Source: Fibrobacter sp.
GTDB lineage: Bacteria; Fibrobacterota; Fibrobacteria; Fibrobacterales; Fibrobacteraceae
Assembly: GCA_012515825.1 (NCBI GenBank)
Contig: JAAYXQ010000025.1
Coordinates: 1-43,758, forward strand
Direction: 5' to 3'
Length of the DNA stretch: 43,758 nt
Both the position numbers and the translations under genes were made by a program. The notes beneath the pieces were generated by a model. It searched no databases and was not told the origin of the DNA. It saw nothing but the letters and a program-made list of their open reading frames with translations. How positions within the stretch are numbered: position 1 is the first letter of the stretch; each line of letters opens with the position of its first letter. Of this stretch, positions 7,752-24,965 are shown piece by piece.

Positions 7752-10700
7752 TTGAAACGAAATATACATATTCTAACTATATTATGGAGGTTGTCTAAAG
7801 AAACAGATCCTCAACATCAGTCTTCTAAAAATAAGAATTGGTCAAGGAGACTGATTGCTGTCGCATTTTTTGCGATTTTTGTAAGCAGTGTTGTCTTCAC
7901 CGCTTGGACTCTTTTTTATTGGCTGGATCATTTTTTAAAGGAAAAACAGACTTATGGTTCCGTAGTAGTAGAACCATTTCAATATTCAAGAGATCATATT
8001 TTATCACATCACTGGGATTCTATCCTTGTTTATAGCCCCGATTTTTCAATTTCAATCCAAAAGCCTCATTTTCGAATTTTTGATCTTCTTTCAAGCAAAC
8101 GATCGGCCTTATTAAAAGTAGAGCATGTAAAATGCCACTTTTCTACTCAACCCAAAGACTCTACCTCAGCCCCCTTTTCACTCGACTCCATAAAAATTCC
8201 AAATATTAAAATACCTATACCCGTTTTCATTGAATTAGACTCTAGTTTGGTAGAAGTCGATTCTACTCTCTTTTGGAAAACTCAAGGGCTAAAAATTAAC
8301 AATGAATCAGCGAACAACGTCATATTATCTATAGACACCATAGACGGAAGTTATCTAGCTTCTTCTTTGAATATCAATGCAATGATATCGCTAGACGATA
8401 TAGAAGTGGCATCTGAAATAAAAATAAATTCAATCAATGGAAAAGATCAGGTCAAACTCAAAGCCAACGCTCCCAAAGATGAACTTCGATCTTATAAGAT
8501 AGAACTAGAAGCCATCGTTCAAGATCCAAAGCAATGGTTACCAGAAAATACTCTACCAACAGGGATACCCACGCTTTCTGATTTAAAATTCAAGATCGAT
8601 TTTTCAGAGAATGAAGACCACTCCAATTATATCTATAATGGAAACATTCAAATAAATACATCCGAATTTTGGCCTCTAGAAGCTTTAAGAAACGACATTT
8701 CTTTTTCAGGAGACTCAAAGGAAATAATAGCCGAAGCCTTTCTACGTAATGAAGATGGTGGAGAAATCGAACTTCATGGAACTCTGGATTTTGATTTGAA
8801 CTTCAATCTCCGTGGAAGTGTAAAAGACATGAGTGCTGAATTTGGTCCTCAAATTATGCCTCTTGACGTACAAATACATTCTGCAGTGAAAAAAGGGAAT
8901 TCCATTGTAGCTGATATTAAAACAAGACGAGGCTCAGAAGTAAAAGCTAATCTATCCAATTTAGATTCAAATCTCAGAATAGACTATCAGGCAAGAATAA
9001 CGCCTACAGAATCTTGGGCTTTAGATTGGACTAGTGGAAATGTCATTCTAGAAGACATTACTCATATATCGGGCTATTTTCAAGATGGGCTTTTACATGC
9101 ACATGCAAAAATTGCTCCCGTCCCATATGCTTATGGCATGAAAGCCGATTCTGTGGTCACAGATCTCGTGCTTAACGAAGATGGAATAATATTTCCAACA
9201 ATTAATATATTCACTCCAAGAGATTCATTATTTGCCTCGGGTGAAGTCATATGGGCTCATCCAAAACAACACACTGCTTGGGAATTAACTTTACCTAATA
9301 GTTCGGCCAAAGCTTGGATTGATTTTGAAGACAGTATAAAAATCAGTGCAGAAACACATAACATTGAAGTTGCTTCCATTCCTTTAGCAAAATCAAATAT
9401 ACTCAATAAGATTAAAGGAACCGTCACAGCTTCTTGGAATCATAATTTTGATAGCAATGAAGGGTATGCTGAAATAGAAGCATCCACCATGTTAGACAAA
9501 TTTATGATTGAAGGGAAAATGACGGTTAAACAAAATCAAGATACCATTTTTATTCAAAACGCAAAAATTAACCACGATAAAAATGCTATCGAAGCAGAAG
9601 CCACATTCCTAATTCCAAACGAATCGACTCCTAAAGGAATTTTACCTGTCGATCTTTTACACGCTTGGGTTGCCTCACATGAATTCGATATTCCCCTCAT
9701 TTTACAACCACTTCAAGACTCCACTTTCAAAAGTGCCTTTTTTAGCGGAGACCTTGCATACAACAAACAATTTGGTTTACAAGGAAACATCAACTTTGAT
9801 CGCATTTTATTTAATAACATTTCAGAAGACGTATTAAGTATTCATCGAGTGAATCTTTTTACAGAAAAAGATAAAGCTGAACTAAATGCGTATCTCAAAA
9901 TAGGAAACGGTGGCTGGAACGGAAATACTCAAATTATATTAAGCGATTTATTTAATTCAAAACGCCATCTAAATATATCTCACGCCACAGAAACAGGTGG
10001 TACAATATGGACAGATGGTTTTATTGATACTTCATTAACGTTCAATGGTTCTATTCAAGCGACTGGATCTTGGTTTTTACCTGCAAATGCAGGAGAAATC
10101 ACTCAAACCGATTTACAAATTGATGTGAAGGCTCCTCTAAAAAAAGGATTGAGTGGAATTGAAGCTCAATTTTATTCAGATAAATCATTCTACAAAATAC
10201 CTTCATTTAACATGACTATTCCCATTTCTCTCCATGGAAAAATGAAAGACAAAGTGGTTTCTGTAGCAAACGTAAAAACTAAAAATGAGCTAGATGAAGA
10301 AATCAATGCCTCCGTTCAAATCAACTTAGATCAAATGGAACTGGATGCCATTCGTTTCTACTCCGAAAAATATTCCTTAACATATGACAGCATCCACTCA
10401 ATTGAAATCAAAAACTTATTTGGGCAAATGGAAGACTTTTCAGATGAGTTTATCATCTCGTCTGATTTATTTGAAATCGCGTATAATTTAAATTCACCCT
10501 CCATTGGTAAAGCCTCGGCCAATTTAAGGGGTAAACTAAATGTTAATATTCCACACTCTAAAGAAAACAGTATTGAAAACTCTTCTGTCAACGGATTTAT
10601 CTTTATAGACAAGGCCGTTTATGAAAAAGAAATAGACATTGATATTTCGCCAAAAAGTATTGATCGTTTACTCACCATGTTCAAAAACACCTTAGTAAAA

Positions 10701-11708
10701 TTCAGAAAATCTTCTATAGAAACAGCATCCATTGCGGGAGGCCGTCCAACCAACTTATCTATTCACATCAGTGACTCTCAAAAAGATTCCGTTGCTATTG
10801 TAACAAGTGTTGCAAAATTTCCTTTGACGGCTGATGTTTGGTTACTTGGAACAACACAACACCCAATCCTTCGTGGCGATGTAACGAGTTCTGGAGAAGG
10901 ATTCTTAGGCATTGAAAAACTGTATGAATTTAATTTGGATTACTTCCGAATATATTGGCCTGATGTGGCATGGCAAAAAGGACTTCTTGATGTATCTAGT
11001 TCCCAAGAACTACCTTATTGTAATTCAACAGAAAAAGAGGAAGAAGAAACCTGCCCCATAAACTTAAATATCATGGGAACAGTCACAGCTCCACAAGTCA
11101 TACCGAGTTCTTCTTGTGGCAATGAATCTTCAGCGGGTTCCATGTATTATAACATCTTTCTCGGCTGTATCTCCGATGAAAACACGACAAACTTAACTGA
11201 TTGGAATAAATTAGCAGGTAAAGCGATAGGAAAAGCCCTTTCCTCTACAGCAAATAAAACTCTGGGGGGTGAATATATTGGCGATATTGATATGAAAATT
11301 CAACTGTTTAATTCCGCAGGGACTTCTGAAAAGGATTCTAGTTATTTTAGAGTACCTATTTCCCTCGATCGCTGGGTAAAAGATCTTAGTATCATTTTCG
11401 GATACACACAAGATCAAAGTGAAAACCCTTCTTATGACCAATCACTTGAATTAGGGGTTAATTACACGCTCCCTGTTTTTAATGAAAAGGATCAAAATCA
11501 GCTAGAACACTTAGACCCCAAATTAACACTCAATGGCGTACTTATTTCCAAACAATATATTTCAAATACAGGTACCAGCAACTCTGAAAGCCGCGTAGAA
11601 AAAAATATAGGTTTCAACTATTCTTATCGTTTTTGGACTCCTTGTATTCTTGGTTTTGGGCAATGTAAAGATAAACGAGGCCCTTTTGATGAGGAGGATG
11701 AAAAATGA
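7752..11708 (+). CDS. tamB: TamB-like translocation-and-assembly-module protein (AsmA/DUF490 family)
   Basis: 1318 aa with one N-terminal TM anchor (LIAVAFFAIFVSSVVFTAWTLFYWL), a long beta-rich body, and a DUF490-like C-terminal region (LLGTTQHPILRGDVTSSGEGFLGIEKLYEFNLDYFRIYWPD). ATGA-coupled to an Omp85 gene. The start is a TTG and is uncertain. Confidence 0.7.
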   Translation: MKRNIHILTILWRLSKETDPQHQSSKNKNWSRRLIAVAFFAIFVSSVVFTAWTLFYWLDHFLKEKQTYGSVVVEPFQYSRDHILSHHWDSILVYSPDFSISIQKPHFRIFDLLSSKRSALLKVEHVKCHFSTQPKDSTSAPFSLDSIKIPNIKIPIPVFIELDSSLVEVDSTLFWKTQGLKINNESANNVILSIDTIDGSYLASSLNINAMISLDDIEVASEIKINSINGKDQVKLKANAPKDELRSYKIELEAIVQDPKQWLPENTLPTGIPTLSDLKFKIDFSENEDHSNYIYNGNIQINTSEFWPLEALRNDISFSGDSKEIIAEAFLRNEDGGEIELHGTLDFDLNFNLRGSVKDMSAEFGPQIMPLDVQIHSAVKKGNSIVADIKTRRGSEVKANLSNLDSNLRIDYQARITPTESWALDWTSGNVILEDITHISGYFQDGLLHAHAKIAPVPYAYGMKADSVVTDLVLNEDGIIFPTINIFTPRDSLFASGEVIWAHPKQHTAWELTLPNSSAKAWIDFEDSIKISAETHNIEVASIPLAKSNILNKIKGTVTASWNHNFDSNEGYAEIEASTMLDKFMIEGKMTVKQNQDTIFIQNAKINHDKNAIEAEATFLIPNESTPKGILPVDLLHAWVASHEFDIPLILQPLQDSTFKSAFFSGDLAYNKQFGLQGNINFDRILFNNISEDVLSIHRVNLFTEKDKAELNAYLKIGNGGWNGNTQIILSDLFNSKRHLNISHATETGGTIWTDGFIDTSLTFNGSIQATGSWFLPANAGEITQTDLQIDVKAPLKKGLSGIEAQFYSDKSFYKIPSFNMTIPISLHGKMKDKVVSVANVKTKNELDEEINASVQINLDQMELDAIRFYSEKYSLTYDSIHSIEIKNLFGQMEDFSDEFIISSDLFEIAYNLNSPSIGKASANLRGKLNVNIPHSKENSIENSSVNGFIFIDKAVYEKEIDIDISPKSIDRLLTMFKNTLVKFRKSSIETASIAGGRPTNLSIHISDSQKDSVAIVTSVAKFPLTADVWLLGTTQHPILRGDVTSSGEGFLGIEKLYEFNLDYFRIYWPDVAWQKGLLDVSSSQELPYCNSTEKEEEETCPINLNIMGTVTAPQVIPSSSCGNESSAGSMYYNIFLGCISDENTTNLTDWNKLAGKAIGKALSSTANKTLGGEYIGDIDMKIQLFNSAGTSEKDSSYFRVPISLDRWVKDLSIIFGYTQDQSENPSYDQSLELGVNYTLPVFNEKDQNQLEHLDPKLTLNGVLISKQYISNTGTSNSESRVEKNIGFNYSYRFWTPCILGFGQCKDKRGPFDEEDEK

Positions 11709-13576
11709 AACGCTTTATTTTAATCTTTTTCTTGTTTTGTTTCGTATCCCTCTTCGCAAACGATAAAATAAAAAATCCATGGTATGTCGAGTTTTCAGGG
11801 AATAGCCTATTCTCTACTTTTCAATTGACCGACAATTTAGATGTACCAAAAGAATTCGGTCAAATGGATACGACAAAGCAAGATTTCCTAATGAAGCTTG
11901 CAAAAGAAGGGCTCACTGGGCTTTATTATGCTCAAGGTTATTTTAGTGCTGATATCAACTTAGAAATTCAACGAGAATATTATTCGTTAGATAGCGCTCA
12001 ACGAGGTTATCTTTTTTATATCACAGAAGGCCCTCAATATACGTTAGATTCGATTCATATCACAGTAAAAGAAGGGAACAGAGAGCTTGAAATCAACAAG
12101 CATCGATTAAAATCCAATAAAAAAAGTGCGTACAATTCCGAAGCTATTATTGAAGATTTAGAATACATTAAAAGCATTTATCGAAAAGAAGGGTATTTAC
12201 ATACCACCATTGATTACAATGAGCTTTTAGATACACTTCAACATGTCGTGATGTTACAAGTTCGTATTGATCCCAAAACACAAGTTTTAATGGGAAAAAT
12301 AAAGAGTAAATCATTCAAACCCCTTAGTAAATCAAATACAGAAGCTCCTCAAGAAGAAGGACTTTCAGATACCTCTTGGTTAAATTCTCTTTGGAGAATT
12401 CCTTCAGAAAGTTTAATTGATGGAGAACAATTTAGTTCTTTCAAAAACAAGCTGTTTTCGACCCAATTATTTACTCAAATCAAGCTTGAAGATTCATTAC
12501 GAGCAGACGGATTTTCCGACGTTCACCTTCAAGTAATTGAACGTGTTCCAGGAGAAGCAAAGTACTCCATTTTCTTTGAAGAATACTATGGATTTGGTGG
12601 TAGCGCAAGCCTTCGCCATAAAAACTTTTTTGGCTCTTTTCATGAATTTTCGACACACCTGTTTGTCGCTCAAAATAAGCAAGAAATCGCATTAGGGTAT
12701 GCTAACCCACTTTTATTTGGAACAGCATTAACATTCATACCTACTGCCATTCGATTTGAAGATCGTCTTTCATTTAATCATGAAAAGATCACACCTCCAG
12801 CTTATCCTGATAGCGTTGAAGAACGAATGGAAGTCATTAATCGTGGTGATATCACCTTTGGATTATCTTCAAAAATTCGATTTCGTGGCACCCTAGACTC
12901 TCGTTTTGTGAATAAAAATAATGACCAAATCTTTAAGTTTAAATACGAAAACGCCCTTACTTTTGATTTTACGGATGATTTTTTCAACCCGAAAAAAGGG
13001 ATTCGATTCATACCCACATTAGGTGCAGGTATCAACTTACAAGGCACTGAAATGATCGGGAATCCCTATACCTATGGTGAATTAACCACAAACCTCTACT
13101 TCCCTATTATAGGAACACTTCTTGGAGCCATTAGTGGTAGTGGCGGCATATTCTTTAATGAAGCTCTTGAAGATGATGCCCGTATTTTTTATCAAGGTGG
13201 CGCAAGATCGGTGCGTAGTTATCGCTTTAGAAGTATCTTTGCAGGCTATGAATCTGTAGAAGATGGAGACACCTTAATTAATACCAGTTTAACTCCCAGA
13301 TACTTGAGACTAAATCAAGAATTACGTTTCAATATTCCAAGTGTTTCATGGAAAAACTGGCAAATTGTCCAATTCTGGGATTGGACAAAAGTCATGGATA
13401 AAGACAGCGACTTATTTAAGGAGAAAATGTCTGCAAGCGTAGGTCTTGGTATTCGCTATCACTGGCAATTCTTAACCCTTCGACTGGATTACGCTTTCAA
13501 AAAAGATTTTGGAAGCGCATCTCCAGAAGGATTTGCATTTAACCGTTTTACGTTTGATCTATCTCAAGCATTCTAG
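11705..13576 (+). CDS. Omp85-family outer-membrane protein (TamA/BamA-like, POTRA + surface-antigen beta-barrel)
   Basis: Signal peptide (FVSLFA-ND) and a POTRA-like N-terminus. Barrel motifs (GGARSVRSYRF, VGLGIRY, LRLDYAF). Terminal aromatic residue (...DLSQAF). Confidence 0.8.
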   Translation: MKRFILIFFLFCFVSLFANDKIKNPWYVEFSGNSLFSTFQLTDNLDVPKEFGQMDTTKQDFLMKLAKEGLTGLYYAQGYFSADINLEIQREYYSLDSAQRGYLFYITEGPQYTLDSIHITVKEGNRELEINKHRLKSNKKSAYNSEAIIEDLEYIKSIYRKEGYLHTTIDYNELLDTLQHVVMLQVRIDPKTQVLMGKIKSKSFKPLSKSNTEAPQEEGLSDTSWLNSLWRIPSESLIDGEQFSSFKNKLFSTQLFTQIKLEDSLRADGFSDVHLQVIERVPGEAKYSIFFEEYYGFGGSASLRHKNFFGSFHEFSTHLFVAQNKQEIALGYANPLLFGTALTFIPTAIRFEDRLSFNHEKITPPAYPDSVEERMEVINRGDITFGLSSKIRFRGTLDSRFVNKNNDQIFKFKYENALTFDFTDDFFNPKKGIRFIPTLGAGINLQGTEMIGNPYTYGELTTNLYFPIIGTLLGAISGSGGIFFNEALEDDARIFYQGGARSVRSYRFRSIFAGYESVEDGDTLINTSLTPRYLRLNQELRFNIPSVSWKNWQIVQFWDWTKVMDKDSDLFKEKMSASVGLGIRYHWQFLTLRLDYAFKKDFGSASPEGFAFNRFTFDLSQAF

Positions 13577-15500: not shown

Positions 15501-17222
15501 ATGGAAGACCCAAAAAAACTAATAAATCAGTTCTTAAAAACAAAACACTCCCCAAATGAAGTCAAAGATTCTCTCTTTAAGGCTGCAGAAGCAGCTTTAT
15601 CAGAAGGCTGGACTTATATGGAAGCGGCTTTTCAACTAGGTAGTAAGGCTCAAGAAGAAGGGCTTTCCGAAGAAGAATCTGAATCAATTATTAGAAGGGC
15701 TTTTGCCTCTGAAAAGAGAACAAAAGAAAGGGCCCCTGACTCATCAGAAGCTCCAGTAATCATGTCCACACAAGCATCGCCTTCTGTAGCCCATGCTTCG
15801 CCTACGTTCGCCGCTGGCATGATCCCATTAGATCAAGTCCTAGCGATGGGATTAGATACTCAATCCATAGAATTACTTCAAAACCATCGTATTGATCCAG
15901 AAGCTCTTTCCATTCCATGGCCTGCCACAGACTGGCGTAAAGATTTAGCGAAGTTAGTAGAAATTGCTTTCCATCCAGATGAAACAATTGACTTCAAGAT
16001 GTCTAATACACCAGAATCAACATCAGAGAAAATAAGTAATATCGTTAATCAATCTGATGCGATCAAAAAAATAATGAAGAGTCTCGATGGTCCCGAAGGA
16101 GCTTTAATTAGCATTAATGCAACTCACGGCGGCCCAGACGCCACGAACGAGAGTTATCGCTATCGTTATGTAGTAGTCGATAACCCTAAGATGAGCTTAG
16201 CAAAACAGCTAGCTTATTATAAAGCTCTAAATTTACCTTGCATCGCGCTTGTGAATACAGGAGCAAATTCCGTACAAGCATGGGTTAAAATTAACGCCGC
16301 CGACTTAGAAGAATACCACGAACGCGTCGACTTTTTATTTTCCACTTTAGAAGAACAAGGTTTTCCTGTAAATGCCGCGAATAAAAACGCAAACCAAATG
16401 GTGCGTATGCCAGGAGTCCTTAGAAACGGAAAGCAGCAATACTTAATTGGTTTAGAACAAGGGGCAAAAGACTTTCTTGAGTGGAAAGAATGGGTAGAAT
16501 ACTGTCTTGACGGTAAGCCGCTTATTGAACTTGCTAGTGATAGTGAAAAACCACCTAAAAAAGATGACCCGATTATTCAAAATGCTCTTCGGGCTGGCGA
16601 ATTTATGCTCTTAACAGCACCTCAAAAAACAGGCAAATCATTTGCATTACTTGATTTAGCACTATCGATTTGTTATGGAGAAGAATGGCTCGGTTCAACA
16701 ACAACAACAAACGATGTTTTATTCATTAATTTTGAATTCACAAAAGCGACGTTCTTAAATCGTCTCCATTTAATCGCAAGCAAAAGAAATATTCCCGCAA
16801 CAACATCCAAGCTCGGTTTCTTAAATCTTCGAGGCATGACTTTATCTCCTTTAGAAATTGCTCAGTTAATCGCTAAAAGAATCGAAGGAGCAAAAAAACT
16901 TGAAAATCATGATTATAAAGTGGTGATTATTGATCCAATTGCTTCTGTTTTACATAATCCGAAAGCCATGAGAACCACTGGGCCATCTCATCAAATTCTC
17001 ATGCAAATGGTAGATACGATCATCGCCTTAACAGGAAGTGCCGTTATTACAGCAAGCAATACGGATGAATTTCCCTACTTAGAAACACATGCCGATAGCG
17101 TCATTTCATTGAATCCAATGGAAGGTTGTCCTAATGTATTTCAAATTCATGGTACTTTTAGGGAGTTTGCGCCATTCCTTGCCAAAGAATGTTCTTGGAT
17201 TTTTCCTAGATTTATAATCTAA
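15501..17222 (+). CDS. Fusion protein: RepB'-type (IncQ-like) primase domain + RepA-type/AAA_25-like P-loop helicase domain
   Basis: The region around aa 195-315 (ALISINAT...YRYVVVDNP...CIALVNTGANSVQAWVKIN...QMVRMPGVLRNGK) parallels my recollection of the RSF1010 RepB' core (VYIRPA...LVLVDDL...ALVVETSPKNYQAWVKV...GRLAGFTNRK). The C-terminal half has Walker A APQKTGKS and Walker B KVVIIDP. AGAGG RBS upstream. Confidence 0.65.
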   Translation: MEDPKKLINQFLKTKHSPNEVKDSLFKAAEAALSEGWTYMEAAFQLGSKAQEEGLSEEESESIIRRAFASEKRTKERAPDSSEAPVIMSTQASPSVAHASPTFAAGMIPLDQVLAMGLDTQSIELLQNHRIDPEALSIPWPATDWRKDLAKLVEIAFHPDETIDFKMSNTPESTSEKISNIVNQSDAIKKIMKSLDGPEGALISINATHGGPDATNESYRYRYVVVDNPKMSLAKQLAYYKALNLPCIALVNTGANSVQAWVKINAADLEEYHERVDFLFSTLEEQGFPVNAANKNANQMVRMPGVLRNGKQQYLIGLEQGAKDFLEWKEWVEYCLDGKPLIELASDSEKPPKKDDPIIQNALRAGEFMLLTAPQKTGKSFALLDLALSICYGEEWLGSTTTTNDVLFINFEFTKATFLNRLHLIASKRNIPATTSKLGFLNLRGMTLSPLEIAQLIAKRIEGAKKLENHDYKVVIIDPIASVLHNPKAMRTTGPSHQILMQMVDTIIALTGSAVITASNTDEFPYLETHADSVISLNPMEGCPNVFQIHGTFREFAPFLAKECSWIFPRFII

Positions 17223-17223
17223 A

Positions 17224-18438
17224 ATGAAAACTATTACAGAATTATCTCAAAAAAAAGACCTCCTATTGGATTGGGTCCGAAAAGAAAAAATCCCTGGAAA
17301 AATACAAGCTTGGTATTCTTTGGAATCCGAAAGCACTCACTGTGATTTTCGGATCATTCAAATCAGGCGTGGTTCAAAAGAAATGCTTTCCATTGAGCCT
17401 CCAGTTCCTGGTATGGCCACTCCTGAAATGGTTCAAGCTATCTACGATCAACTTCGCAAAGAGCACTTACATATTCTTAAGAAGGCCATTATTCAAATCT
17501 GGATTCGAGCTTCTGGTCACGGTCAATTTGGAGTTCTAGTTCAAGCCAATTTAAGAAGTGCAGCAACAACCAAAGCCTATAAAAGCTTTGTTTCTTTCCT
17601 AGAACGGACCTTTCCAGAAATCGTTAGTTGTCACCACATTCAAACATACCCATTCACCCTTTTCGATCCAGCTCAAAACGATTCTCCAATAAGAATCGAT
17701 CTCAAGAATGATTTTGGAAATTCTTTTTTGCCTATAGGAAACACCCCATTTTCTTATCATATTGTGGACTGGGCACCAAAATGTAAAGCCGCTTGGATAC
17801 AACTTCCAGAAAGAATAAAGAATTTTATACATCCAACCGCAGAAGATCGTTTACTCGAATTTCACGCAAGTAGTGGCTACCTAGGAGCAAGTCTATCGCC
17901 TTATTTTAAATCCGTAGATAGCGTGGATATGTATGACTCGGCAAAACAAATGGCTATAAAAAATGCACATCAATTGCCAAAAGCAAACATGAAAGTGCAT
18001 CGTGAACGCTTAAGCGAAAAATGGATTCTTTCTTTTTTCAACATCCCTGAAAACGAAGGGAAATGGACTATTTTATTTAACCCACCTGCAGGGAAACCTC
18101 TCCCTACAGGAGTCATCATGGCTACTGCTAAAGCTTGTCCAGAAAGAATTCTTTTTATTTCTTCGAATTTAGAAGAAGCTGCTAAAGAAATTAAAAGATT
18201 TCGAAGAGAAGGTTATATGTTAAGAAAAGCCTTGCCGATGGATCTAGAACCTGGTACTAAATCATTTGAAGTACTGTTTCTATTTGTCCCTGACCGTGCA
18301 GGAATTTTAGGTGATAAGAAAACTTTTTCAACAAAAAAAGAGCAAAAAACGAATTCTAAACCTAAAAAAGAGGTAAAAATAGGAGAAATTCCTCATTTTG
18401 TACAAAGGAAAAAACCTACTTTCTCTAGAAAAGATTAA
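17224..18438 (+). CDS. TrmA/RlmD (RNA uracil-5-methyltransferase)-like fold protein with degenerate catalytic motifs and a basic C-terminal tail
   Basis: The scaffold motifs appear in the family order: LEFHASSGYLG (motif I-like), VDSVDM...IKNAHQ, WTILFNPPAGK (for DPPRxG), ILFISSNLEE (for SCNPxT; Cys replaced by Ser314), SFEVLFLF (for HxE). The tail is Lys-rich. The gene starts 1 nt after the upstream stop. Confidence 0.5.
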   Translation: MKTITELSQKKDLLLDWVRKEKIPGKIQAWYSLESESTHCDFRIIQIRRGSKEMLSIEPPVPGMATPEMVQAIYDQLRKEHLHILKKAIIQIWIRASGHGQFGVLVQANLRSAATTKAYKSFVSFLERTFPEIVSCHHIQTYPFTLFDPAQNDSPIRIDLKNDFGNSFLPIGNTPFSYHIVDWAPKCKAAWIQLPERIKNFIHPTAEDRLLEFHASSGYLGASLSPYFKSVDSVDMYDSAKQMAIKNAHQLPKANMKVHRERLSEKWILSFFNIPENEGKWTILFNPPAGKPLPTGVIMATAKACPERILFISSNLEEAAKEIKRFRREGYMLRKALPMDLEPGTKSFEVLFLFVPDRAGILGDKKTFSTKKEQKTNSKPKKEVKIGEIPHFVQRKKPTFSRKD

Positions 18439-18500: not shown

Positions 18501-19670
18501 ATGAATCAAATGAAACTCTTAACCCTACTTCTTGGATTGACAGCGTTAGTCACAGGAGCCTATTTTGTAAAAAAAGGCGATACTTTATGGGATTTGAGCG
18601 AAACGTTCTTAAATGACCCCTTTGCTTGGCCTGATCTATGGGAGAACAATCGCCATATTGAGGATCCTCATTGGATTTATCCTGGTGACTCCATCTATTT
18701 TGGTGAAAATGATAGTGTTTCTGATACTATGCCTCCAGCTCAACCAAAAGACCAAAACCTTTGTAACTCAAGTATTCCTGATTCCGCATTACCTAAAACA
18801 GTAACCCCTGTTGGCTGTGATGAAAACGATTCCAGAGGAGATCAATTTGAAAACTTGCTCGGAAATTTAAGAAGCAAATCTAAAATTGAAAAAAAGAAAA
18901 AAGTAACTGACGAGTATTTCTATCAACAACGTCCAGAATCAAAAATATTTAATGGCTATTACCAAGTTTTGTCACCAGATGTTTTAAAACTGGATGAACT
19001 TAAAAATGATTCTCGTTGGTTTTCAGTTCAGTCTGGAGAACGTTCCACACCTCTACTTCACATGCCTGAAAACGAAATAGTCGTTGGAGTTGGATACAAA
19101 ACAAACTCGAATATAAAAAAAGGGGATTTAGTTGAAGTATGGCAAACCAAAACAATTGAATACCTAAATCCAGTTTCAAAAAATACAGAAAAAACCGCTC
19201 TACTTCAGATTGGTGGATACGCAAAAATCACAGCCATTGGCGATACCCTTTCTAGAGCCATTTTAGTTCAAAGCTTTAAAGAAATCAACATTGAAAAGAG
19301 CAAGGCAAAACTGAAAGAGCCATATTCCGCAATTAATGTCAAAGGCTACAGTACTATAAATGAAGTGAAAGTAGATGAAATGGGTTATGTTCTCTATTCT
19401 ATCGATCCTGCATTAGTCATCGGAGCTTATTCTTATATCATTATTGATAAAGGAACTAAGTCTGGTTACAACGCAGGTGATGGAGTCGCTATATGGGAAG
19501 AAGATTTATCAGATCCAGGACTTCCCCCACGTCTTCTAGGTAGAGGAATAGTTACACGAGCAAAACAAGAACAAGCCACTGTTTTAATTCGTGAGATCTA
19601 CTCCAATAATCGACGTATTAAATTAGGCCATCGCATTTCATTAACTCATAAAGCCCAATTAGTTCAATGA
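18501..19670 (+). CDS. Secreted LysM-domain protein
   Basis: Signal peptide, then a LysM-like [47 protein letters not shown]. The rest of the protein is uncharacterised. Confidence 0.7.
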
Positions 19671-19707
19671 TAAAGATGAATCGCTCAGATAATCTTTAAG
19701 AGAGCGT

Positions 19708-21753
19708 ATGCGGTTTTCTAAAAGCAATCCGATTCTCGTCGCTTTCTTTTTTGGGGGAATCATCCTTCCTACCGCGATTCTTTCTGTTTTAAGTTTTCGT
19801 AATATTCAAAATGAGACCTACTTAGCTAAAAAAAATTTCGAAGAAAACCTTAAGTCTTTTAAAAAAGAACTAGAAAATGTGGTTCAAAAAGAACAAGGGA
19901 AAATATTACAAGAGACCAAGGCGGCATCTCAATTTCTTTACGAACAGCCACAGAATTTATTAGAATTTGGAAACGCCTCCTCCTTTAAAAATGTAAAAGG
20001 GCTAAGCGCTATTTTCCTTTTCAATAAAGAGACAATCGTTTATCCTAATATAGCGTCTCATTTTTATTATGAAAGTTCTAAATGGCCTCAGACGAATTAT
20101 TCCTCTATAGAGCAACAACTTTTTTTTGAAGAAATCAATAAAACAAATGAAGAAAAAGTAAAATTAGCACGTTCTCTTCGTTTAATGCAAAATCCTTTTC
20201 AAAGCAGAAGCGAGCAAGTACAAAACCTTCTTGGCCTTCTTCGTAATGCATACCAAAATAAAAAATATGATGAAGCCCTCCACATCATCTCTCTTTTGCA
20301 ACAACGTCCTAATCTTCAAAGCTATCTGCATTATCAACTAAGAGAATCTCTACAACTGTTACACTTTGAAATTCTTGTTGAACAAAATAAGCACGAAGAA
20401 GCTCAAAACTTGTGCTTATTAGAATTAAATCGCTTTTTACAACAGCCCCATATTAATGATATTAGTGCCACTCGTTATTTTTTTGAAACCACATTTAATC
20501 AGATCCTTTCCTTTGAAAAGTTAACACAAGAAACTAGAGAAGCATTCTGGAATCTCCGTGAAAACTTTAATCGCCAATTAACCCATACAGAAATTTTATA
20601 CGAACATCTTCCCTTTTTCAAAAGACTACTTTCCGATCATTTATCCCCTAAAGAAGGTATTCTCTATCGTTTCGATGGAAATGACATGTTTTTTAGAATG
20701 TCATATCCTTGGCTTTCAGGAGATCAAATCGTTATAGGAAAAGTAGATGTTGAAAATTATGAAGCCCGCATTCGTTATCAAATTCAAACCATCGCTAGAG
20801 AATGGAAAAATATTCCGTATACGGTCACTAACATAAAAGACTCTATTCTCATAGGTTCTATTCCAGAAAATGGAACCATTTTAGAACAACTTATTTTAGG
20901 CCAAGATCTAAACTGGACTTTAACTTTATTTCAAAAAGACCCAAAAGAAATTCATAAAGAAACACGTCATAAAATGTTTCTCTTATACGGTTTAGTTAGC
21001 TTTTCTCTAATTACCGTATTATTTGGTTCCTTTTTCATGTTCCGTTTTTTGATTCAAGAACGAAAGCTTTTATTCATGAAATCAAACTTTTTGTCAAGCG
21101 TTTCTCATGAGCTAAAAACGCCTCTAACATCCATTAAAATGTTTGCTGAAATGATGGCCAGAGGACGAGTTCAAAAGCCAGAAAAAATTCAAGAGTATTC
21201 CTCTTTAATTGGAAAAGAATCCACTCGTTTAGAAAACTTAATTGGAGCTATTTTAAGTTACACTCGCATGGAAAACGGTACATCTGCATTTAAATGGGAA
21301 CGATTTGATTTAGGGATTTGTGCAGAAACAGTATATAATGCACTTCTAGACATTACAGAACAAAAAGGATTAGAAATATCATCTAGAATAGAAAAAAATC
21401 TTTTTATAATGGGAGATTACACCGCTCTTTATAGCTTAATTCAAAATTTAATTGAAAATGCAATTAAATACACGAATTCTCCTGGTTCTATTTTTGTTCA
21501 AGCCTACGAAGAAAATGAAAAAATTTTATTTTCAGTGGTAGACACAGGTATAGGAATTCCTCCTTCTGAGCAAAAAAATATTTTTAATGATTTCTATCGA
21601 GTTGGTGATGAAATGACAAGAAGTACAAAAGGCTCTGGACTAGGGCTTGCGATTGTTAAACGAGTCGCAGATACTCATAAAGCGTCTATATCATTACAAA
21701 GTCGCTTAGGAAAAGGTTCTACATTTACAGTGAGGTTTAAAAAGGCAGAGTAA
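19708..21753 (+). CDS. Sensor histidine kinase (large extracytoplasmic N-terminal domain, HisKA + HATPase_c)
   Basis: Two TM segments (aa ~9-29 and ~424-446). H-box SVSHELKTPLTSI, N-box NLIENAIKYT, G-boxes DTGIGIP and GSGLGLAIV. Confidence 0.9.
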   Translation: MRFSKSNPILVAFFFGGIILPTAILSVLSFRNIQNETYLAKKNFEENLKSFKKELENVVQKEQGKILQETKAASQFLYEQPQNLLEFGNASSFKNVKGLSAIFLFNKETIVYPNIASHFYYESSKWPQTNYSSIEQQLFFEEINKTNEEKVKLARSLRLMQNPFQSRSEQVQNLLGLLRNAYQNKKYDEALHIISLLQQRPNLQSYLHYQLRESLQLLHFEILVEQNKHEEAQNLCLLELNRFLQQPHINDISATRYFFETTFNQILSFEKLTQETREAFWNLRENFNRQLTHTEILYEHLPFFKRLLSDHLSPKEGILYRFDGNDMFFRMSYPWLSGDQIVIGKVDVENYEARIRYQIQTIAREWKNIPYTVTNIKDSILIGSIPENGTILEQLILGQDLNWTLTLFQKDPKEIHKETRHKMFLLYGLVSFSLITVLFGSFFMFRFLIQERKLLFMKSNFLSSVSHELKTPLTSIKMFAEMMARGRVQKPEKIQEYSSLIGKESTRLENLIGAILSYTRMENGTSAFKWERFDLGICAETVYNALLDITEQKGLEISSRIEKNLFIMGDYTALYSLIQNLIENAIKYTNSPGSIFVQAYEENEKILFSVVDTGIGIPPSEQKNIFNDFYRVGDEMTRSTKGSGLGLAIVKRVADTHKASISLQSRLGKGSTFTVRFKKAE

Positions 21754-21754
21754 T

Positions 21755-22468
21755 ATGGAAAATAAAATACTAATAGTAGAAGATGAAGAAATCATCCGCT
21801 TAGGGCTTCAAGATAATTTTGAACTTGAAAATTACATCGTAGAAACCGCTTCTGACGGAGAAGAAGCTATTGCTAAAGCGGATTCCTTTAAACCAGATCT
21901 TGTCATTTTAGATTTAATGATCCCGAAAAAAAGTGGTTTTGAGGTATGTCGAGTGATTCGTAAGAAGCATCCTAAATGTTTTATTATTATGCTTACAGCC
22001 AAAACAGAAGAAACAAGTAAAGTCGCTGGGCTAGAAATGGGTGCCGATGACTATGTCACCAAACCATTTTCTATTCTTGAATTACTCGCGAGAGTCAAGG
22101 CCTTCTTACGTCGTTCTGCGGATTTAAAAACCGCTATTGAATCAAACACAACAGTGGTTCCAGATGTAATCCAATTTGCTGATATTCGATTAGATTTTAA
22201 GAAATACGAAGCATTTAAAAAAGATGAACCCCTGGAAATGTCTGCCAGAGAATTTCAAATTCTAAAATACTTTTGGGGGCGTCGTGGCGAAGTTATTCTT
22301 CGTGAAGATCTCCTTCAAGAAATCTGGGGGTATACTCCAGAAAATATGCCATCCACAAGAACGATTGACAATCATATCGTCAATTTGAGAAAAAAACTGG
22401 AAGATGATCAAGCGAATCCGAAACTCATTCTTTCTATTCGTGGAGCTGGATACAAATTCGATGCTTAA
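21755..22468 (+). CDS. OmpR/PhoB-family response regulator
   Basis: Receiver domain (ILIVEDEE...DLVILDLMIPKKSGFEV...TAK) plus a winged-helix C-terminus (REFQILKYF...TRTIDNHIVNLRKKLE...IRGAGYKF). Starts 1 nt after the kinase stop. Confidence 0.92.
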   Translation: MENKILIVEDEEIIRLGLQDNFELENYIVETASDGEEAIAKADSFKPDLVILDLMIPKKSGFEVCRVIRKKHPKCFIIMLTAKTEETSKVAGLEMGADDYVTKPFSILELLARVKAFLRRSADLKTAIESNTTVVPDVIQFADIRLDFKKYEAFKKDEPLEMSAREFQILKYFWGRRGEVILREDLLQEIWGYTPENMPSTRTIDNHIVNLRKKLEDDQANPKLILSIRGAGYKFDA

Positions 22469-24965
22469 AATCATTTCAATACTAATGCTTCTTCTTACAG
22501 CCCAAATGACATGGGCTGTTAAAATGGCTACCGATATCAAAGAAGCATTATATCTATTTGAAATGAAAGGTGATTTTTCAAAAGCCACCAAAATACTCGA
22601 AAATGTGATCCATAATGGCGATCTTGATGATAAAACAAACGCCTATTTTTATCTTGCAAAAATACAAGACCTTAACGGCAATGCTTCTATATCCTCTTTA
22701 TACTATAAACAAAGCCTGACCTCAGCACAAAGTCCAGCAGATGCTTATTGGATTTCAGAACAAATTGCTCGCCTCTCCCCACAACCAGAAAATCTAATAA
22801 AGCAAAAAATTCCTTTTAAGCAAAATATCCTTAAAAGTTTTAAATCCCCATCTCAGCTATTTTTATTATTTGAAGATCGAAACCTTTTCCAAATTAATCA
22901 AGATAAATCCTCCCAAATTCCATTATCGGTCCCAAACACAAGCACAATACATCACATTTCATCTAATGGAGTTTGGTATAGTGATGTAGATCCCCTCCAA
23001 CTATATTTTCAACCATTAACTGCAAAAAGCCCAATTAAAAGCTATCCCATTTCAAATAAAATCGATGATCTTTTTACCCTACCAGGGAATCAAGCCCTTG
23101 TTCTATCAGGAAATTCTCTCTTTTTTATTTCTAACGACGGTATTCGTTTTTCAATTAAAGACCGATACCAAAACTGTTCCATAATGGGCCTCTATGAGCC
23201 ATTAAATCGCTTTCTTTTAAATTGCCCAGATAATGCCATTCACTTTATTCAAACGGACACTGGAACAGAAGACTATGTCATTTCTCAGCTAGATCCTATT
23301 ACTCATTTTAAAATAGAGTCGAATTTTATTCTTCTCGCTTCTGGCCACTCCATATGGCTTTATAAACCAGATGAGCACACTCCTTTAGTTTGGAAGTATT
23401 CTAATGTAAATATCGAAGATTTATCCATTTTCGAGAAAAAAATCGTGCTCTTAGAAACGTCGGGAAAAGTAACTCTTCTTGATAGACAAACTGGATTTCC
23501 CTTTTCCTCATTACAGACAGATGCCTCTTGGATATCCCCCATGGCAGTCGGTTCTTTAGGCTTATACAGCAAAGACGGCAGAGTGACTGCAGTAGATACC
23601 CTCCTTCGCCCTTTATGGTCTTTCCATTTAGGAATTGCATTACAAAATCGTCCATTCAAAATAAATGATCTCCTCTATTTTCCATTAACAGATCAGTCGA
23701 TTGTCGCCTTAAATACTTTACACTATGGGAAAACACCTCTTCTATCCACTGTTCTAGTGTCTCAAGCTCATAAGCTTGCTTCTAAAAAGCAATGGAAAGA
23801 GTTATCCCCTCTTCTGGATTCACTATTAAAAATAGAATACGGTAACGCTGAAGCATGGTTCCTAAAAGCCATACTTGCAGAAACAGTGAATAGTACGGAA
23901 AAAGAAAAACAAAAAGCCTGGTCAGAAGCCGTTCGTTTATCTCTTGGAGATTCGCAAAAATCGAAATTAATCTTATCTCGCTATAGTCAAATGATTAATG
24001 CTAAATTCACCCATTTTTTACAACTGTCTCCAAAAACGTCTTACCCTCAGTTTTTTGGCTACAAAAAGAATTTGTACACAGTGGACGTTCCTGCACAAAC
24101 TCTTCAAAATATAAATCCAGAAACAGGTGAATTACGTTGGATCAGAAATTTAGGGAAATTAACAAATAGTCCTGTAATGGCTAATGACGAAAATACACTT
24201 GCTATTGGCTCTGGATTTAAGGTTCATATCCATGAACTTTTAAAAGAAGAAAAGATAAAAACACTTGAATTACCAGGAAAACCATTTCATATAGAATATT
24301 CCAACAATGCAATTTATATTTCAACTTGGAATGGTTTTTTAGTTAAAGTTTTAAAACCAAATCTTAACCTCGCTTGGTCACGAAAAATCTTCACAATGCC
24401 ATTTCATTTTACCTCTAAAGGGAATGATCTTTTTGTCGCAAGTCTTGAAGGAGAGCTTTTAAAACTTTGGAATTCTTCAGGACAAATTAAGCATACTTTA
24501 GAAAGTTTACACACCACTATTACTCATTTAGAAGCTAAAGATTCTCTTTTAGCCGTAGCCAATGCGGATAATAAAATCTTTATTTTTTCCTCTAATTCAA
24601 ACACCTTACTCAAAAGCATTTCAACCTCTTCTGAAATTAATTCAGTTCAAATTGTCGAAATCAGCTCAAAAATCCATATTTTAGCTGGTTTAGCCAATCA
24701 AGAAATCATTCTTTATTCTTTAGAAAATGACAATCCCTTATGGAGTTTCAATGGAGCAGGCTCTATTTTTGTTTCTCCCATTGTCAACAACAATATTGCT
24801 TGGATAGATCAAAAAAATGAAATTATTGGCATTTCTCTAACTTCAGGAAAAATAAGTCATCGTTTTAAAACCCCAGGCGGGGCAAGTACACCTTTTATTT
24901 TAGATAAAACTATTTTTACAGCATCCCCAAAAAGGCTCTTATACGCCTTTAATCTCCCTTTTTAA
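22461..24965 (+). CDS. Secreted TPR + PQQ-like/BamB-like beta-propeller repeat protein
   Basis: Start set at the ATG at 22461 (MLKIISILMLLLTAQMTWA signal peptide), overlapping the response-regulator stop by 8 nt (ATGCTTAA). TPR-like N-terminus. Repeated propeller-type motifs (LLDRQTGFPF, AVDTLLRPLWSF, INPETGELRWIRNLG). Confidence 0.6.
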   Translation: MLKIISILMLLLTAQMTWAVKMATDIKEALYLFEMKGDFSKATKILENVIHNGDLDDKTNAYFYLAKIQDLNGNASISSLYYKQSLTSAQSPADAYWISEQIARLSPQPENLIKQKIPFKQNILKSFKSPSQLFLLFEDRNLFQINQDKSSQIPLSVPNTSTIHHISSNGVWYSDVDPLQLYFQPLTAKSPIKSYPISNKIDDLFTLPGNQALVLSGNSLFFISNDGIRFSIKDRYQNCSIMGLYEPLNRFLLNCPDNAIHFIQTDTGTEDYVISQLDPITHFKIESNFILLASGHSIWLYKPDEHTPLVWKYSNVNIEDLSIFEKKIVLLETSGKVTLLDRQTGFPFSSLQTDASWISPMAVGSLGLYSKDGRVTAVDTLLRPLWSFHLGIALQNRPFKINDLLYFPLTDQSIVALNTLHYGKTPLLSTVLVSQAHKLASKKQWKELSPLLDSLLKIEYGNAEAWFLKAILAETVNSTEKEKQKAWSEAVRLSLGDSQKSKLILSRYSQMINAKFTHFLQLSPKTSYPQFFGYKKNLYTVDVPAQTLQNINPETGELRWIRNLGKLTNSPVMANDENTLAIGSGFKVHIHELLKEEKIKTLELPGKPFHIEYSNNAIYISTWNGFLVKVLKPNLNLAWSRKIFTMPFHFTSKGNDLFVASLEGELLKLWNSSGQIKHTLESLHTTITHLEAKDSLLAVANADNKIFIFSSNSNTLLKSISTSSEINSVQIVEISSKIHILAGLANQEIILYSLENDNPLWSFNGAGSIFVSPIVNNNIAWIDQKNEIIGISLTSGKISHRFKTPGGASTPFILDKTIFTASPKRLLYAFNLPF

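Follow-up and report, generated by a model that had tools for sequence, protein, structure and literature searches.

We analyzed a 43,758-nucleotide stretch of DNA from a Fibrobacter sp. (contig JAAYXQ010000025.1; hereafter the window), in which two adjacent genes encode a 573-amino-acid (aa) protein (protein 1, product of 15501-17222) and a 404-aa protein (protein 2, product of 17224-18438). In the reading that we consider best, and probably correct, they are an exapted pseudo-primase ATPase paired with a pseudo-methyltransferase of the 5-methyluridine (m5U) type. Sequence comparisons indicate that protein 1 has its origin in an InversePrim replication protein of phages and that both genes belong to the vertically inherited core of the Fibrobacteraceae.

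The two genes lie on the same strand, and their open reading frames (ORFs) are parted by one base (TAA, A, ATG). A prior inspection of the letters of the window (the sequence-only reading) had pointed out these ORFs, the 1-nt gap, a series of motifs, and a serine, Ser314, in protein 2; all of them are present where it had placed them. Because each ORF has hundreds of homologs in the databases, both genes are real and not chance ORFs. Public databases name protein 1 "AAA family ATPase" and protein 2 "hypothetical protein."

Kinship of protein 1 with the InversePrim primases of phages

The domains of protein 1 are listed below with the evidence for each, including AlphaFold2 (AF2) models with their predicted local distance difference test scores (pLDDT) and the ratio of nonsynonymous to synonymous substitution rates (dN/dS).

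15501..17222, + strand: gene of protein 1, putative pseudo-primase/P-loop ATPase derived from InversePrim (ORF and PHROG 2597 match)
15501..15725, + strand: N-terminal helical domain, residues 1-75, weakly PriCT-2-like (AF2, hhalign, BLASTP)
15726..15815, + strand: low-complexity, poorly conserved linker, residues 76-105 (pLDDT below 40, identity, dN/dS)
15816..16535, + strand: archaeo-eukaryotic primase (AEP)-like domain with an eroded active site, residues 106-345 (InversePrim alignments, column counts)
16536..17222, + strand: RepA/AAA_25-type RecA-like P-loop domain, residues 346-573 (Pfam, Foldseek)

The sequence-only reading had described protein 1 as a fusion of a primase-like domain with a RepA-type P-loop domain. 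Phage alignments and Pfam agree with this description, and the order of the primase-like domain followed by AAA_25 is clear. The sole Pfam family found was AAA_25, the family expected for the P-loop part (residues 345-517, E = 1e-21, 77.8 bits against a cutoff of 27); neither RepB_primase (at E ≤ 1) nor PriCT_2 matched the protein. In PHROGs, phrog_2597, annotated "DNA primase," matched residues 175-485 with E = 3.7e-72. A tblastn search of phage genomes returned 271 records with ~29-34% identity over ~320-400 residues, mostly from Firmicutes phages and some from Gordonia phages, which are annotated as primase, primase/helicase, or replicative helicase. Among them are phages and prophages of Lactococcus, Streptococcus ("Javan" prophages), Faecalibacterium (FP_Lugh), Bacillus (BCJA1c), Paenibacillus (Vegas and Hayley), and Enterococcus (EFC-1). 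The nearest phage relatives share ~32% identity over ~370 aa (E = 1e-46 to 1e-50), and tblastn E values were 9e-46 for BCJA1c gp22 (YP_164400) and 4e-47 for Paenibacillus phage Vegas. A plasmid affinity was set aside, as tblastn against 72,556 plasmids gave one match, in a 2.7-Mb Paenibacillus replicon.

InversePrim proteins of Firmicutes prophages carry a PriCT domain before the AEP primase domain and a RepA-family helicase after it (Kazlauskas et al. 2018, PMC5862659). In the supplement of that paper, BCJA1c YP_164400 and Paenibacillus phage Vegas appear under InversePrim with the layout "PriCT_2+Prim+RepA," and no Fibrobacter sequence is given for that family. The supergroup to which InversePrim belongs, PrimPol-PV1, is described there as "(nearly) exclusive to MGE" (mobile genetic elements). 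FP_Lugh gp15, recorded as "AEP primase-helicase," likewise consists of PriCT_2 (7-80), an unannotated domain, and AAA_25 (340-516), and the BLASTP alignment of protein 1 to it begins inside its Pfam PriCT_2 region. The N-terminal domain of protein 1 is all-helical in the AF2 model (pLDDT 77-88) and aligns weakly with the PriCT-2 region of the phage N-termini (hhalign, E = 5e-4). The linker that follows has a pLDDT below 40, a mean identity of 27%, and a dN/dS of 0.62.

Protein 1 appears to have the same order of domains as BCJA1c gp22 and FP_Lugh gp15, namely an N-terminal helical domain that may be of the PriCT type, an AEP domain, and a RepA/AAA_25 P-loop domain, with ~31-34% identity over ~320-400 residues and collinear motifs, and it shares with them D227, N228, the arginine of RMPG, Walker A, and Walker B. 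By these alignments, its closest known family is the InversePrim AEP primases of Firmicutes phages. The label "IncQ-like" that the sequence-only reading had given to the protein is not supported, given the missing RepB_primase match and the InversePrim phage primase-helicases as nearest relatives. The known InversePrim members are phage or prophage genes, mostly of 680-800 aa, whereas the Fibrobacter protein is the 573-aa product of a chromosomal core gene.

The AF2 model of protein 1, built from 51 homologs, reached a pLDDT of 55 overall and less than 50 across the primase core, so that Foldseek was informative for the P-loop domain alone. For this domain it returned KaiC, RadA, and RSF1010 RepA (1g8y), and the model predicts a RecA/KaiC/RepA-like fold. 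A profile search of protein 1 against the PDB gave nothing at E ≤ 1.

Comparison with RepB' and RepA of RSF1010

The sequence-only reading had likened the primase part to RSF1010 RepB', and the RepB' motifs that it gave were accurate. The authentic RepB' sequences, taken from the supplement of PMC5862659, contain LVLVDD (73-78), NYQAWVKV, YDADPASAD (131-139), and GRLAG (144-148). Protein 1 carries YVVVDNP (D227 at 16179-16181, N228), IALVNTGANSVQAWVKIN, and VRMPGVLRNGK, as well as PVNAANKN (N291 at 16371-16373), Walker A APQKTGKS, and Walker B VVIIDP. An hhalign comparison of the Fibrobacter AEP domain with three RepB' sequences was collinear over all motifs but weak (pairwise E = 6.5e-4, probability 27%). 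It equated D227 with D77, N228 with D78, Q259 with Q106, residue 291 with D134, and R302 with R145. The catalytic aspartates of RepB' are D77, D78, and D134 (PMC4434180); their equivalents in the window protein are D227, N228, and N291, and this genome's protein thus keeps one of the three.

RepB' forms a separate small family within the same PrimPol-PV1 supergroup as InversePrim (PMC5862659). The collinearity argues that the motif parallel is real remote homology, with RepB' as a remote cousin of protein 1 in that supergroup. The proposed relationship would be a distant one, and RepB' is not the closest family. Beyond the supergroup, the two proteins share a Gln in motif II, and protein 1 has the AAA_25-type P-loop domain of RSF1010 RepA. 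In RSF1010, however, RepB' and RepA are separate proteins, whereas here the two parts form one polypeptide. RepB' also carries PriCT-1 at its C-terminus and acts together with RepC, iterons, and ssi sites, whereas the pair in the window has no replicon context.

In RepA, three functional elements lie in the H3/H4 region: the sensor of the gamma-phosphate, the loop that binds DNA, and the arginine finger. BCJA1c gp22 aligns to RSF1010 RepA (1g8y) through this region ("HHHSKG…DRASGSG" with "HHASKG…ASRGSS") to residue 201, with E = 4.5e-7. The alignment of protein 1 to the same structure ends at residue 176, just before HHASKG (E = 0.16), and the RepA H3/H4 motifs are missing from the window protein.

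Loss and retention of catalytic residues in protein 1

The positions that matter for catalysis, all on the + strand, are the following.

16173-16175: V225, AEP active site
16179-16181: D227, AEP active site
16275-16277: Q259, AEP active site
16371-16373: N291, AEP active site
16404-16406: R302, AEP active site
16635-16637: K379, Walker A, kept in the P-loop domain
Residue 412: Glu412, kept in the P-loop domain
16932-16934: D478, Walker B, kept in the P-loop domain

Alignment columns were counted over 79 Fibrobacteraceae species other than the window genome. Position 225 is Val in 61 and Met in 18 of them and is acidic in none (the window reads V225-V226-D227). D227 is kept in 78 species, and no species lacks Gln259 or Arg302. 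At residue 291, 77 species have Asp, L006 has Asn, and L007 has Ser; the window has Asn291 (AAT). In the P-loop domain, Walker A K379 and Walker B D478 are invariant, and residue 412 is Glu (76 species) or Asp (3 species). Almost all InversePrim members, in contrast, keep ExD, His, Asp, and SRLSR, whereas the Fibrobacter protein has V-x-D, Gln, and, in this genome, Asn291. Motif II of InversePrim is His, and a Gln at this position occurs in active RepB' and PolpTN2-type enzymes (PMC5862659).

The sequence-only reading had taken the Asn of D227-N228 for a missing acidic residue. The Asn is present, but the phage relatives with the full motif set have Asn there as well, so nothing was lost at this position in comparison with the closest family; the missing carboxylate is that of the Glu two residues before D227, where protein 1 has V225. 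The observation that the DADPASAD-equivalent stretch reads PVNAANKN was correct, as residue 291 aligns to D134 and is Asn in the window.

An exhaustive search with residues 1-350 of protein 1 yielded 1060 relatives, 14 of them at E ≤ 1e-30. The Fibrobacter sequences fall into one 50% cluster. The next group consists of six representatives (P0243, P0244, P0247, P0248, P0249, and P0251) of 519-556 aa that are 35-40% identical and alignable from the N-terminus. After these come many relatives of the phage type, mostly 600-900 aa long (mostly 620-850 aa for those in the alignment). The three types compare as follows.

Motif I: phage type, hLVE[SC]D; Fibrobacter, V/M-x-D; 519-556-aa relatives, E-x-R/K/V or R-x-K
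Motif II: phage type, SGGKSxHA; Fibrobacter, Gln; 519-556-aa relatives, Gln
Motif III: phage type, h-D-xx-N[KR]N; Fibrobacter, Asp (Asn here); 519-556-aa relatives, F/N/E/D/D/Q
Arg motif: phage type, SRLSR[ML]PG; Fibrobacter, Arg kept; 519-556-aa relatives, without Arg
Helicase region: phage type, HHHSKGxQGxKxxxDRASGSGVFARDPD; deleted in Fibrobacter and in the 519-556-aa relatives
C-terminal domain: phage type, ~100-250 residues; absent in Fibrobacter and in the 519-556-aa relatives

With few exceptions, the phage-type relatives keep LVE[SC]D, SGGKSxHA, hD..N[KR]N, and SRLSRxPG, and most keep HHHSKG…DRASGSG; P0253, the nearest relative with the full motif set, is located on a phage-like contig. 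The chromosomal members in the alignment, four from the Fibrobacteraceae plus all six 519-556-aa relatives, without exception lack the C-terminal domain and have, judged against the phage-type relatives displayed in the alignment, a 14-residue deletion that removes HxSKG…RxSGS. Most InversePrim members, by comparison, possess the HHxSKG…RxSGS region and the C-terminal domain, neither of which the Fibrobacter protein retains after its H3/H4 deletion. The 519-556-aa relatives have lost two or three ligands plus the Arg, more than the Fibrobacter proteins.

Read from these alignments, one motif-I carboxylate of the primase metal site is missing in all 79 species, and the motif-III Asp has been lost in addition in the clade of this genome. 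As D291 was lost in this clade without relaxed selection, we argue that catalysis is not what is selected. The "primase/helicase scaffold" suggested earlier is not supported as a working enzyme, since the primase part lacks metal-binding residues and the helicase part lacks the H3/H4 region.

Protein 2 has the fold of m5U-methyltransferases

The features of protein 2 rest in part on a hidden Markov model (HMM) alignment to RlmCD; two of the conserved positions would bind S-adenosylmethionine (SAM) in the enzymes.

17224..18438, + strand: gene of protein 2, putative pseudo-methyltransferase with an m5U-methyltransferase fold (ORF, AF2, Foldseek)
17785..18303, + strand: Rossmann-type methyltransferase-like domain, residues 188-360 (HMM alignment to RlmCD, column counts)
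18316..18435, + strand: disordered Lys-rich tail with a conserved short motif, residues 365-404 (pLDDT below 50, invariant columns)
Positions within the protein: E212; D235; N286 (position of the DPPR Asp); S314 (18163-18165, position of the nucleophile Cys); E349 (general-base equivalent)

Pfam gave no match for protein 2, and TIGR00479 (RlmD) scored 30.8 bits, far under its cutoff of 183.55. The profile of the protein 2 family, in turn, matched RlmCD (5xj1) at E = 7.6e-11, followed by RumA and TrmA. The AF2 model is of high confidence (pLDDT 88, predicted template modeling score [pTM] 0.83), and Foldseek aligned it over ~370 columns to RlmCD, RumA, an archaeal rRNA m5U-methyltransferase, and TrmA with E values from 1.7e-23 to 7e-16 (5zq0, E = 1.7e-23, template modeling score [TM] 0.69; 2bh2, E = 9e-21; 3bt7, E = 7e-16). 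In a viral structure library, it matched the m5U-methyltransferases of giant viruses.

The sequence carries NPPAGK and ISSN, with Ser314 encoded by TCG at 18163-18165, and the Lys-rich tail follows. The motifs align as follows.

Motif I: RlmCD, DAYSGIGTIG; protein 2 family consensus, EFYSGSSYVS or EFYSGSSFVS; window, EFHASSGYLG
Motif IV: RlmCD, VDPPRKGL; protein 2 family consensus, LNLPADESL; window, NPPAGK
Cys motif: RlmCD, YISCNVAT; protein 2 family consensus, LQTSNLEV; window, ISSN
General-base region: RlmCD, HHVET; protein 2 family consensus, GKFEV

Among 59 protein 2 homologs, the Cys column reads Ser in 35, Gly in 17, and Pro in 3, with Arg, Gln, and Ala as the other residues. Over 80 species it reads S37/G22/A11/T3/P2/E2/Q/H/R; Cys occurs in none of the 80, and the position is not conserved. 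E349 corresponds to the HVET Glu of RlmCD, and its column is Glu in 64 and Asp in 11 of the 78 sequences scored. E212, D235, N286, and E349 are conserved in the family. Each point that the sequence-only reading had made about this protein is borne out: the TrmA/RlmD fold without the catalytic Cys by Foldseek and the 80 species, and the motif order, NPPAGK, and the degenerate SAM motif I by the HMM alignment. In that alignment the Cys is absent and the Gly-rich loop and DPPR are degenerate.

Protein 2 thus resembles RlmCD, RlmD (RumA), and TrmA in its two-domain fold (central domain plus Rossmann domain), in the order of its motifs, and in the conserved acidic equivalents of the motif-I and motif-II SAM ligands and of the general-base Glu. 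It differs from them in the nucleophile Cys, which is replaced by a variable position across 80 species, in the change of DPPRxG to N-[LP]-P-x-x-E, and in a degenerate GxGxxG loop. Judged by the offset at which it aligns with RlmCD, protein 2 also appears to lack the N-terminal TRAM domain, and it has gained a basic disordered tail. This tail, which makes up the last 40 residues (pLDDT below 50), contains the motif IPHFxQxxPTF, with P380 and F392 invariant; this motif may be a docking peptide.

Distribution, synteny, and selection

Protein 1 has hundreds of full-length homologs (67-89% identity), and the named ones all come from Fibrobacter/Fibrobacteraceae, including isolate genomes with contigs of up to 956 kb. 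By the names of its homologs, the window belongs to a low-GC member of the Fibrobacteraceae. The 187 homologs of protein 2 (43-82% identity) come from the same taxa. A scan of one genome per species with the protein 2 profile found 91 relatives, all from Fibrobacter or other Fibrobacteraceae, and the 80 loci that were retained are labeled Fibrobacter, Fibrobacteraceae, or Fibrobacterales; as far as these searches reach, protein 2 appears to be confined to the Fibrobacteraceae. A protein 1 homolog lies directly upstream of protein 2 in 79 of the 80 loci, the 80th being a 1.7-kb contig. The pair is thus co-conserved as a pair and not patchy, and in 79 species the protein 1 gene holds a syntenic chromosomal position among housekeeping genes. 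In two metagenome-assembled genomes, RGIG6669 and SRR6425803_bin.126 (L021 and L078; L020 and L025), two different copies of the locus were found in each, which suggests mixed bins or strain heterogeneity rather than gene duplication.

Upstream of the pair in the window lies ettA, on the opposite strand, and downstream the following block.

18501..22468, + strand: LysM protein, histidine kinase, and OmpR-type response regulator (synteny, Pfam)

These flanks had been recognized in the sequence-only reading, and the annotation of the window agrees. The LysM, kinase, and regulator genes follow the pair in every locus whose contig is long enough, and the genes from protein 1 through the response regulator are never separated across lineages L006-L085. 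The upstream side varies. Its gene is ettA in the closest relatives of the window, part of a block of RNase D, 5-formyltetrahydrofolate (5-FTHF) ligase, and SpoU methylase in 30 of the 80 loci, and glutaminyl-tRNA synthetase (GlnRS), ThiC, aconitase, SNF symporter, or MatE in other lineages. At least seven different genes (ettA, GlnRS, ThiC, aconitase, SNF symporter, MatE, and SpoU methylase) stand immediately upstream of protein 1 across L006-L085, and none of the upstream genes is a mobile-element or defense gene. As the upstream flank varies and the order from the pair to the regulator is constant, the conserved block begins at protein 1; from there on it is a long-lived synteny block, possibly an operon. 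A scan for terminators found no terminator-like site between the pair and the LysM/kinase/regulator block. A general link to the upstream RNA-modification genes was rejected, as RNase D and SpoU lie upstream in only those 30 loci.

Protein 1 is 60-90% identical across the 79 Fibrobacteraceae loci and 63-71% identical outside the closest relatives. Measured against the genus, protein 1 (~63-71%) thus exceeds the LysM protein (~57%) and the kinase (~59%) in identity and falls short of the regulator (72-86%); protein 2 is 41-50% identical. The most conserved domain of protein 1 in Fibrobacter is the AEP core (residues 201-345), with 78% identity compared with 72% for the P-loop domain. Values of dN/dS, computed between the window and L006, were as follows.

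Protein 1: whole, 0.053; AEP domain (residues 106-345), 0.026; P-loop domain, 0.031; linker, 0.62
Protein 2: 0.098
Neighboring genes: 0.05-0.08

No Fibrobacter-type copy of either protein was found among the viral contigs of IMG/VR with search patterns that are clade-specific and limited in sensitivity. Neither "orphan" nor "decayed remnant," two terms of the sequence-only reading, fits a pair with hundreds of homologs that is syntenic in 79 of 80 loci and has dN/dS values of 0.053 and 0.098. Its other option, a domesticated module, is favored by the same synteny and purifying selection. The ancestor of protein 1 would have been captured by the ancestor of the Fibrobacteraceae or earlier.

Chromosomal relatives outside the Fibrobacteraceae

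The 519-556-aa chromosomal relatives for which DNA was available represent three lineages, and none has a methyltransferase-like neighbor. In two lineages the gene lies among flagellar, chitinase, clp, bamA, skp, lpxD, and lpxC genes; in the third (L093) it lies among polyamine genes. P0243 adjoins ABC-transporter genes on a contig that ends at the gene, so that its downstream side is unseen. Because these more diverged chromosomal relatives lack the partner, the gene of protein 1 appears to have been domesticated before it was paired with that of protein 2.

In two of these lineages a Clp/Hsp100-type ATPase directly follows the 519-556-aa relative (L087, 8001-12256; L090, 3534-7774; L092, 3060-7300), and where the contig is longer (L087-L089) bamA, skp, lpxD, and lpxC come after it. 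Flagellar genes and a glycoside hydrolase family 18 (GH18) chitinase lie near the gene in one lineage.

Proposed explanation and alternatives

In the explanation that we favor, an InversePrim phage protein was captured and became a core chromosomal gene inherited vertically in the Fibrobacteraceae. Along the way, one motif-I ligand was lost, the motif-II His was replaced by Gln, and the motif-III Asp was lost in the clade of this genome, while the P-loop, the catalytic Glu, and Walker B were retained throughout. Judged by its residues, the pair would synthesize no primers, would not unwind processively, and would form no m5U. It may instead be an ATP-binding or ATP-hydrolyzing module that binds nucleic acid or nucleotide. 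The AEP-derived domain of protein 1 would now only bind nucleic acid or nucleotide, and protein 2 would be a non-catalytic nucleic-acid binder; the P-loop domain could supply a nucleotide-dependent switch, and the dead primase domain and the pseudo-methyltransferase the binding surfaces. Such a module would serve a housekeeping pathway and is perhaps co-expressed with the downstream LysM and two-component genes. A fuller version of this history seems to us about evenly balanced between right and wrong: an ancestor of the Fibrobacteraceae and of two or more other uncultured lineages would have captured a phage InversePrim primase-helicase, which was stripped of its primase and helicase chemistry and long kept as a core, non-replicative P-loop protein, and which in the Fibrobacteraceae works with a purpose-built pseudo-m5U-methyltransferase.

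Several observations weigh against a pair of pseudoenzymes. Most Fibrobacter proteins retain two carboxylates (D227 and D291), Arg302, and Gln259; as Gln is normal in active relatives, residual nucleotidyl transfer is possible outside the clade of this genome. With a pLDDT below 50 in the AEP domain, compensating ligands are possible, and an enzyme would likewise be expected to conserve its AEP core this strongly. In protein 2, the conserved E212, D235, N286, and E349 are equivalents of SAM-binding or general-base residues, so that ligand binding or another chemistry is possible. The coupling of the two proteins is drawn from their conserved adjacency, and their co-occurrence carries little information because both are core genes in the family.

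In an alternative view, protein 1 is still an active, unusual primase-helicase, for example for repriming, replication restart, or the synthesis of a specific small nucleic acid, and protein 2 is an active Cys-independent methyltransferase. The most conserved part of protein 1 is indeed its AEP core, D227, D291 (77/79), R302, and Q259 are conserved, and active RepB' and PolpTN2 relatives also have a Gln in motif II. The P-loop domain has kept Walker A, Walker B, and Glu412, and protein 2 retains its four conserved residues. We nonetheless regard this view as unlikely. No species has an acidic residue at position 225, the Asp of residue 291 has given way to Asn or Ser in this genome and those closest to it while the AEP dN/dS is still 0.026, and the sister chromosomal lineages have lost two or three ligands and the Arg. 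The helicase H3/H4 region is deleted, and in protein 2 the Gly-rich SAM loop and DPPR are degenerate and position 314 is variable. We also doubt that the two genes are unrelated neighbors, with protein 2 as an RlmD-derived rRNA/tRNA-binding assembly factor or chaperone and protein 1 independent of it. This would agree with the protein 1 relatives outside the Fibrobacteraceae, which lack the partner (two lineages being followed by the Clp-type ATPase and bamA and the third, L093, having no methyltransferase-like neighbor), with RNase D and a SpoU/RlmB-type methylase just upstream in 30 of 80 loci, and with the much faster evolution of protein 2 (~45% identity compared with ~68% for protein 1). 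On the other hand, the genes are 1 nt apart in this genome, and the pair was never separated in 79 species despite many rearrangements of the upstream flank.

The phage origin of protein 1 would suit an anti-phage device in which a dead primase-helicase copy poisons or senses the replisomes of InversePrim phages with the pseudo-methyltransferase as partner, and PADLOC gave weak matches to components of MADS (mad8, E = 0.01; mad2, E = 7e-4). These scores are insignificant, however, and limited to generic P-loop and Rossmann segments. Defense genes are normally patchy and lie in variable islands, whereas this pair is universal, syntenic, flanked by housekeeping and not defense genes, and evolves no faster than those neighbors; we hold a defense role to be quite improbable. 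Least of all do we expect the pair to be a decaying remnant of an integrated IncQ-type plasmid or prophage without present function. Catalytic residues are missing, as such a remnant would have it, and the nearest relatives with the full motif set are phage genes, but in 79 species neither reading frame is broken or shortened, both genes are syntenic among housekeeping genes with a dN/dS of 0.03-0.10, and the window holds no integrase, tRNA, repeat, compositional shift, RepC gene, or iterons to go with it. Synteny, purifying selection, and the failure to find either protein in IMG/VR contradict this view.

The exapted pseudo-primase that we favor is unlikely to have a replicative role, because a DnaG-type primase gene is present in the same window and DciA has been reported in a replication operon of Fibrobacteres (PMC5109545). 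On the same grounds, a role of protein 1 as a replacement of DnaG, DnaB, or a helicase loader was set aside. The helicase loaders DnaC and DnaI are also phage replication genes that became fixed as vertically inherited chromosomal genes (PMC5109545), but they kept their replication role and ATPase motifs, whereas the ancestral catalytic sites are eroded in protein 1.

The DnaG-type gene (29848-31728, + strand) adjoins ruvC and encodes a 626-aa protein with a DnaG-type primase followed by a DnaB_C-like RecA domain, in the order of T7 gp4/Twinkle. Its primase part has a CHC2 zinc ribbon (22-74), a TIGR01391 match far below the cutoff (E = 4e-26), weak Toprim matches, and a match to Aquifex DnaG (2au3, E = 1.5e-9). 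For the RecA part, the matches are PF03796 (E = 2.8e-8) and Aquifex DnaB (4nmn, E = 0.006), and its Walker A looks degenerate (SSQPFGLKS). The protein may be an unusual form of DnaG in the Fibrobacteraceae.

Other features of the window

Scans of the window around the pair found no tRNA, Rfam match, or integrase, no iteron-like, flanking, or otherwise meaningful repeat, and no RepC gene, and no compositional step or break was seen at the pair within the window; in this the scans agree with the sequence-only reading, which had seen no integrase, iterons, tRNA, repeats, or compositional break. Promoter-like and terminator-like sites were not in excess in a scan of the window.

Downstream of the pair, an 853-aa ORF for a beta-propeller (BamB/PQQ-like) protein (22404-24965) overlaps with its start the end of the response-regulator gene (21755-22468) by 65 nt. 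Its homologs align only from about residue 36, and the true start therefore probably lies further downstream. Upstream, a 1318-aa ORF (7752-11708, + strand) without a Pfam or NCBIfam match overlaps by 4 nt the start of a gene for an Omp85/POTRA protein (11705-13576, + strand). The layout of these two recalls TamB/TamA, although the models do not recognize the large protein.

Implications

In literature searches, neither an InversePrim lineage that is chromosomal and catalytically eroded nor the protein 2 pseudo-methyltransferase was found to have been described. If our reading is true, protein 1 would represent an undescribed class of exapted "pseudo-replication" protein and a clear exception to the published view of PrimPol-PV1 primases as almost exclusively mobile-element genes. 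Its gene is part of the core of an entire bacterial family, and its catalytic residues erode while selection on it is no weaker than on the housekeeping neighbors. This makes it a natural case in which to ask what use a primase fold and a RepA-type P-loop have when they neither prime nor unwind, and why a methyltransferase fold that lacks its nucleophile is retained beside them. Fibrobacter is a major fiber-degrading genus of the rumen, and because the pair is conserved across Fibrobacter, the two genes are candidates for a lineage-specific essential function.

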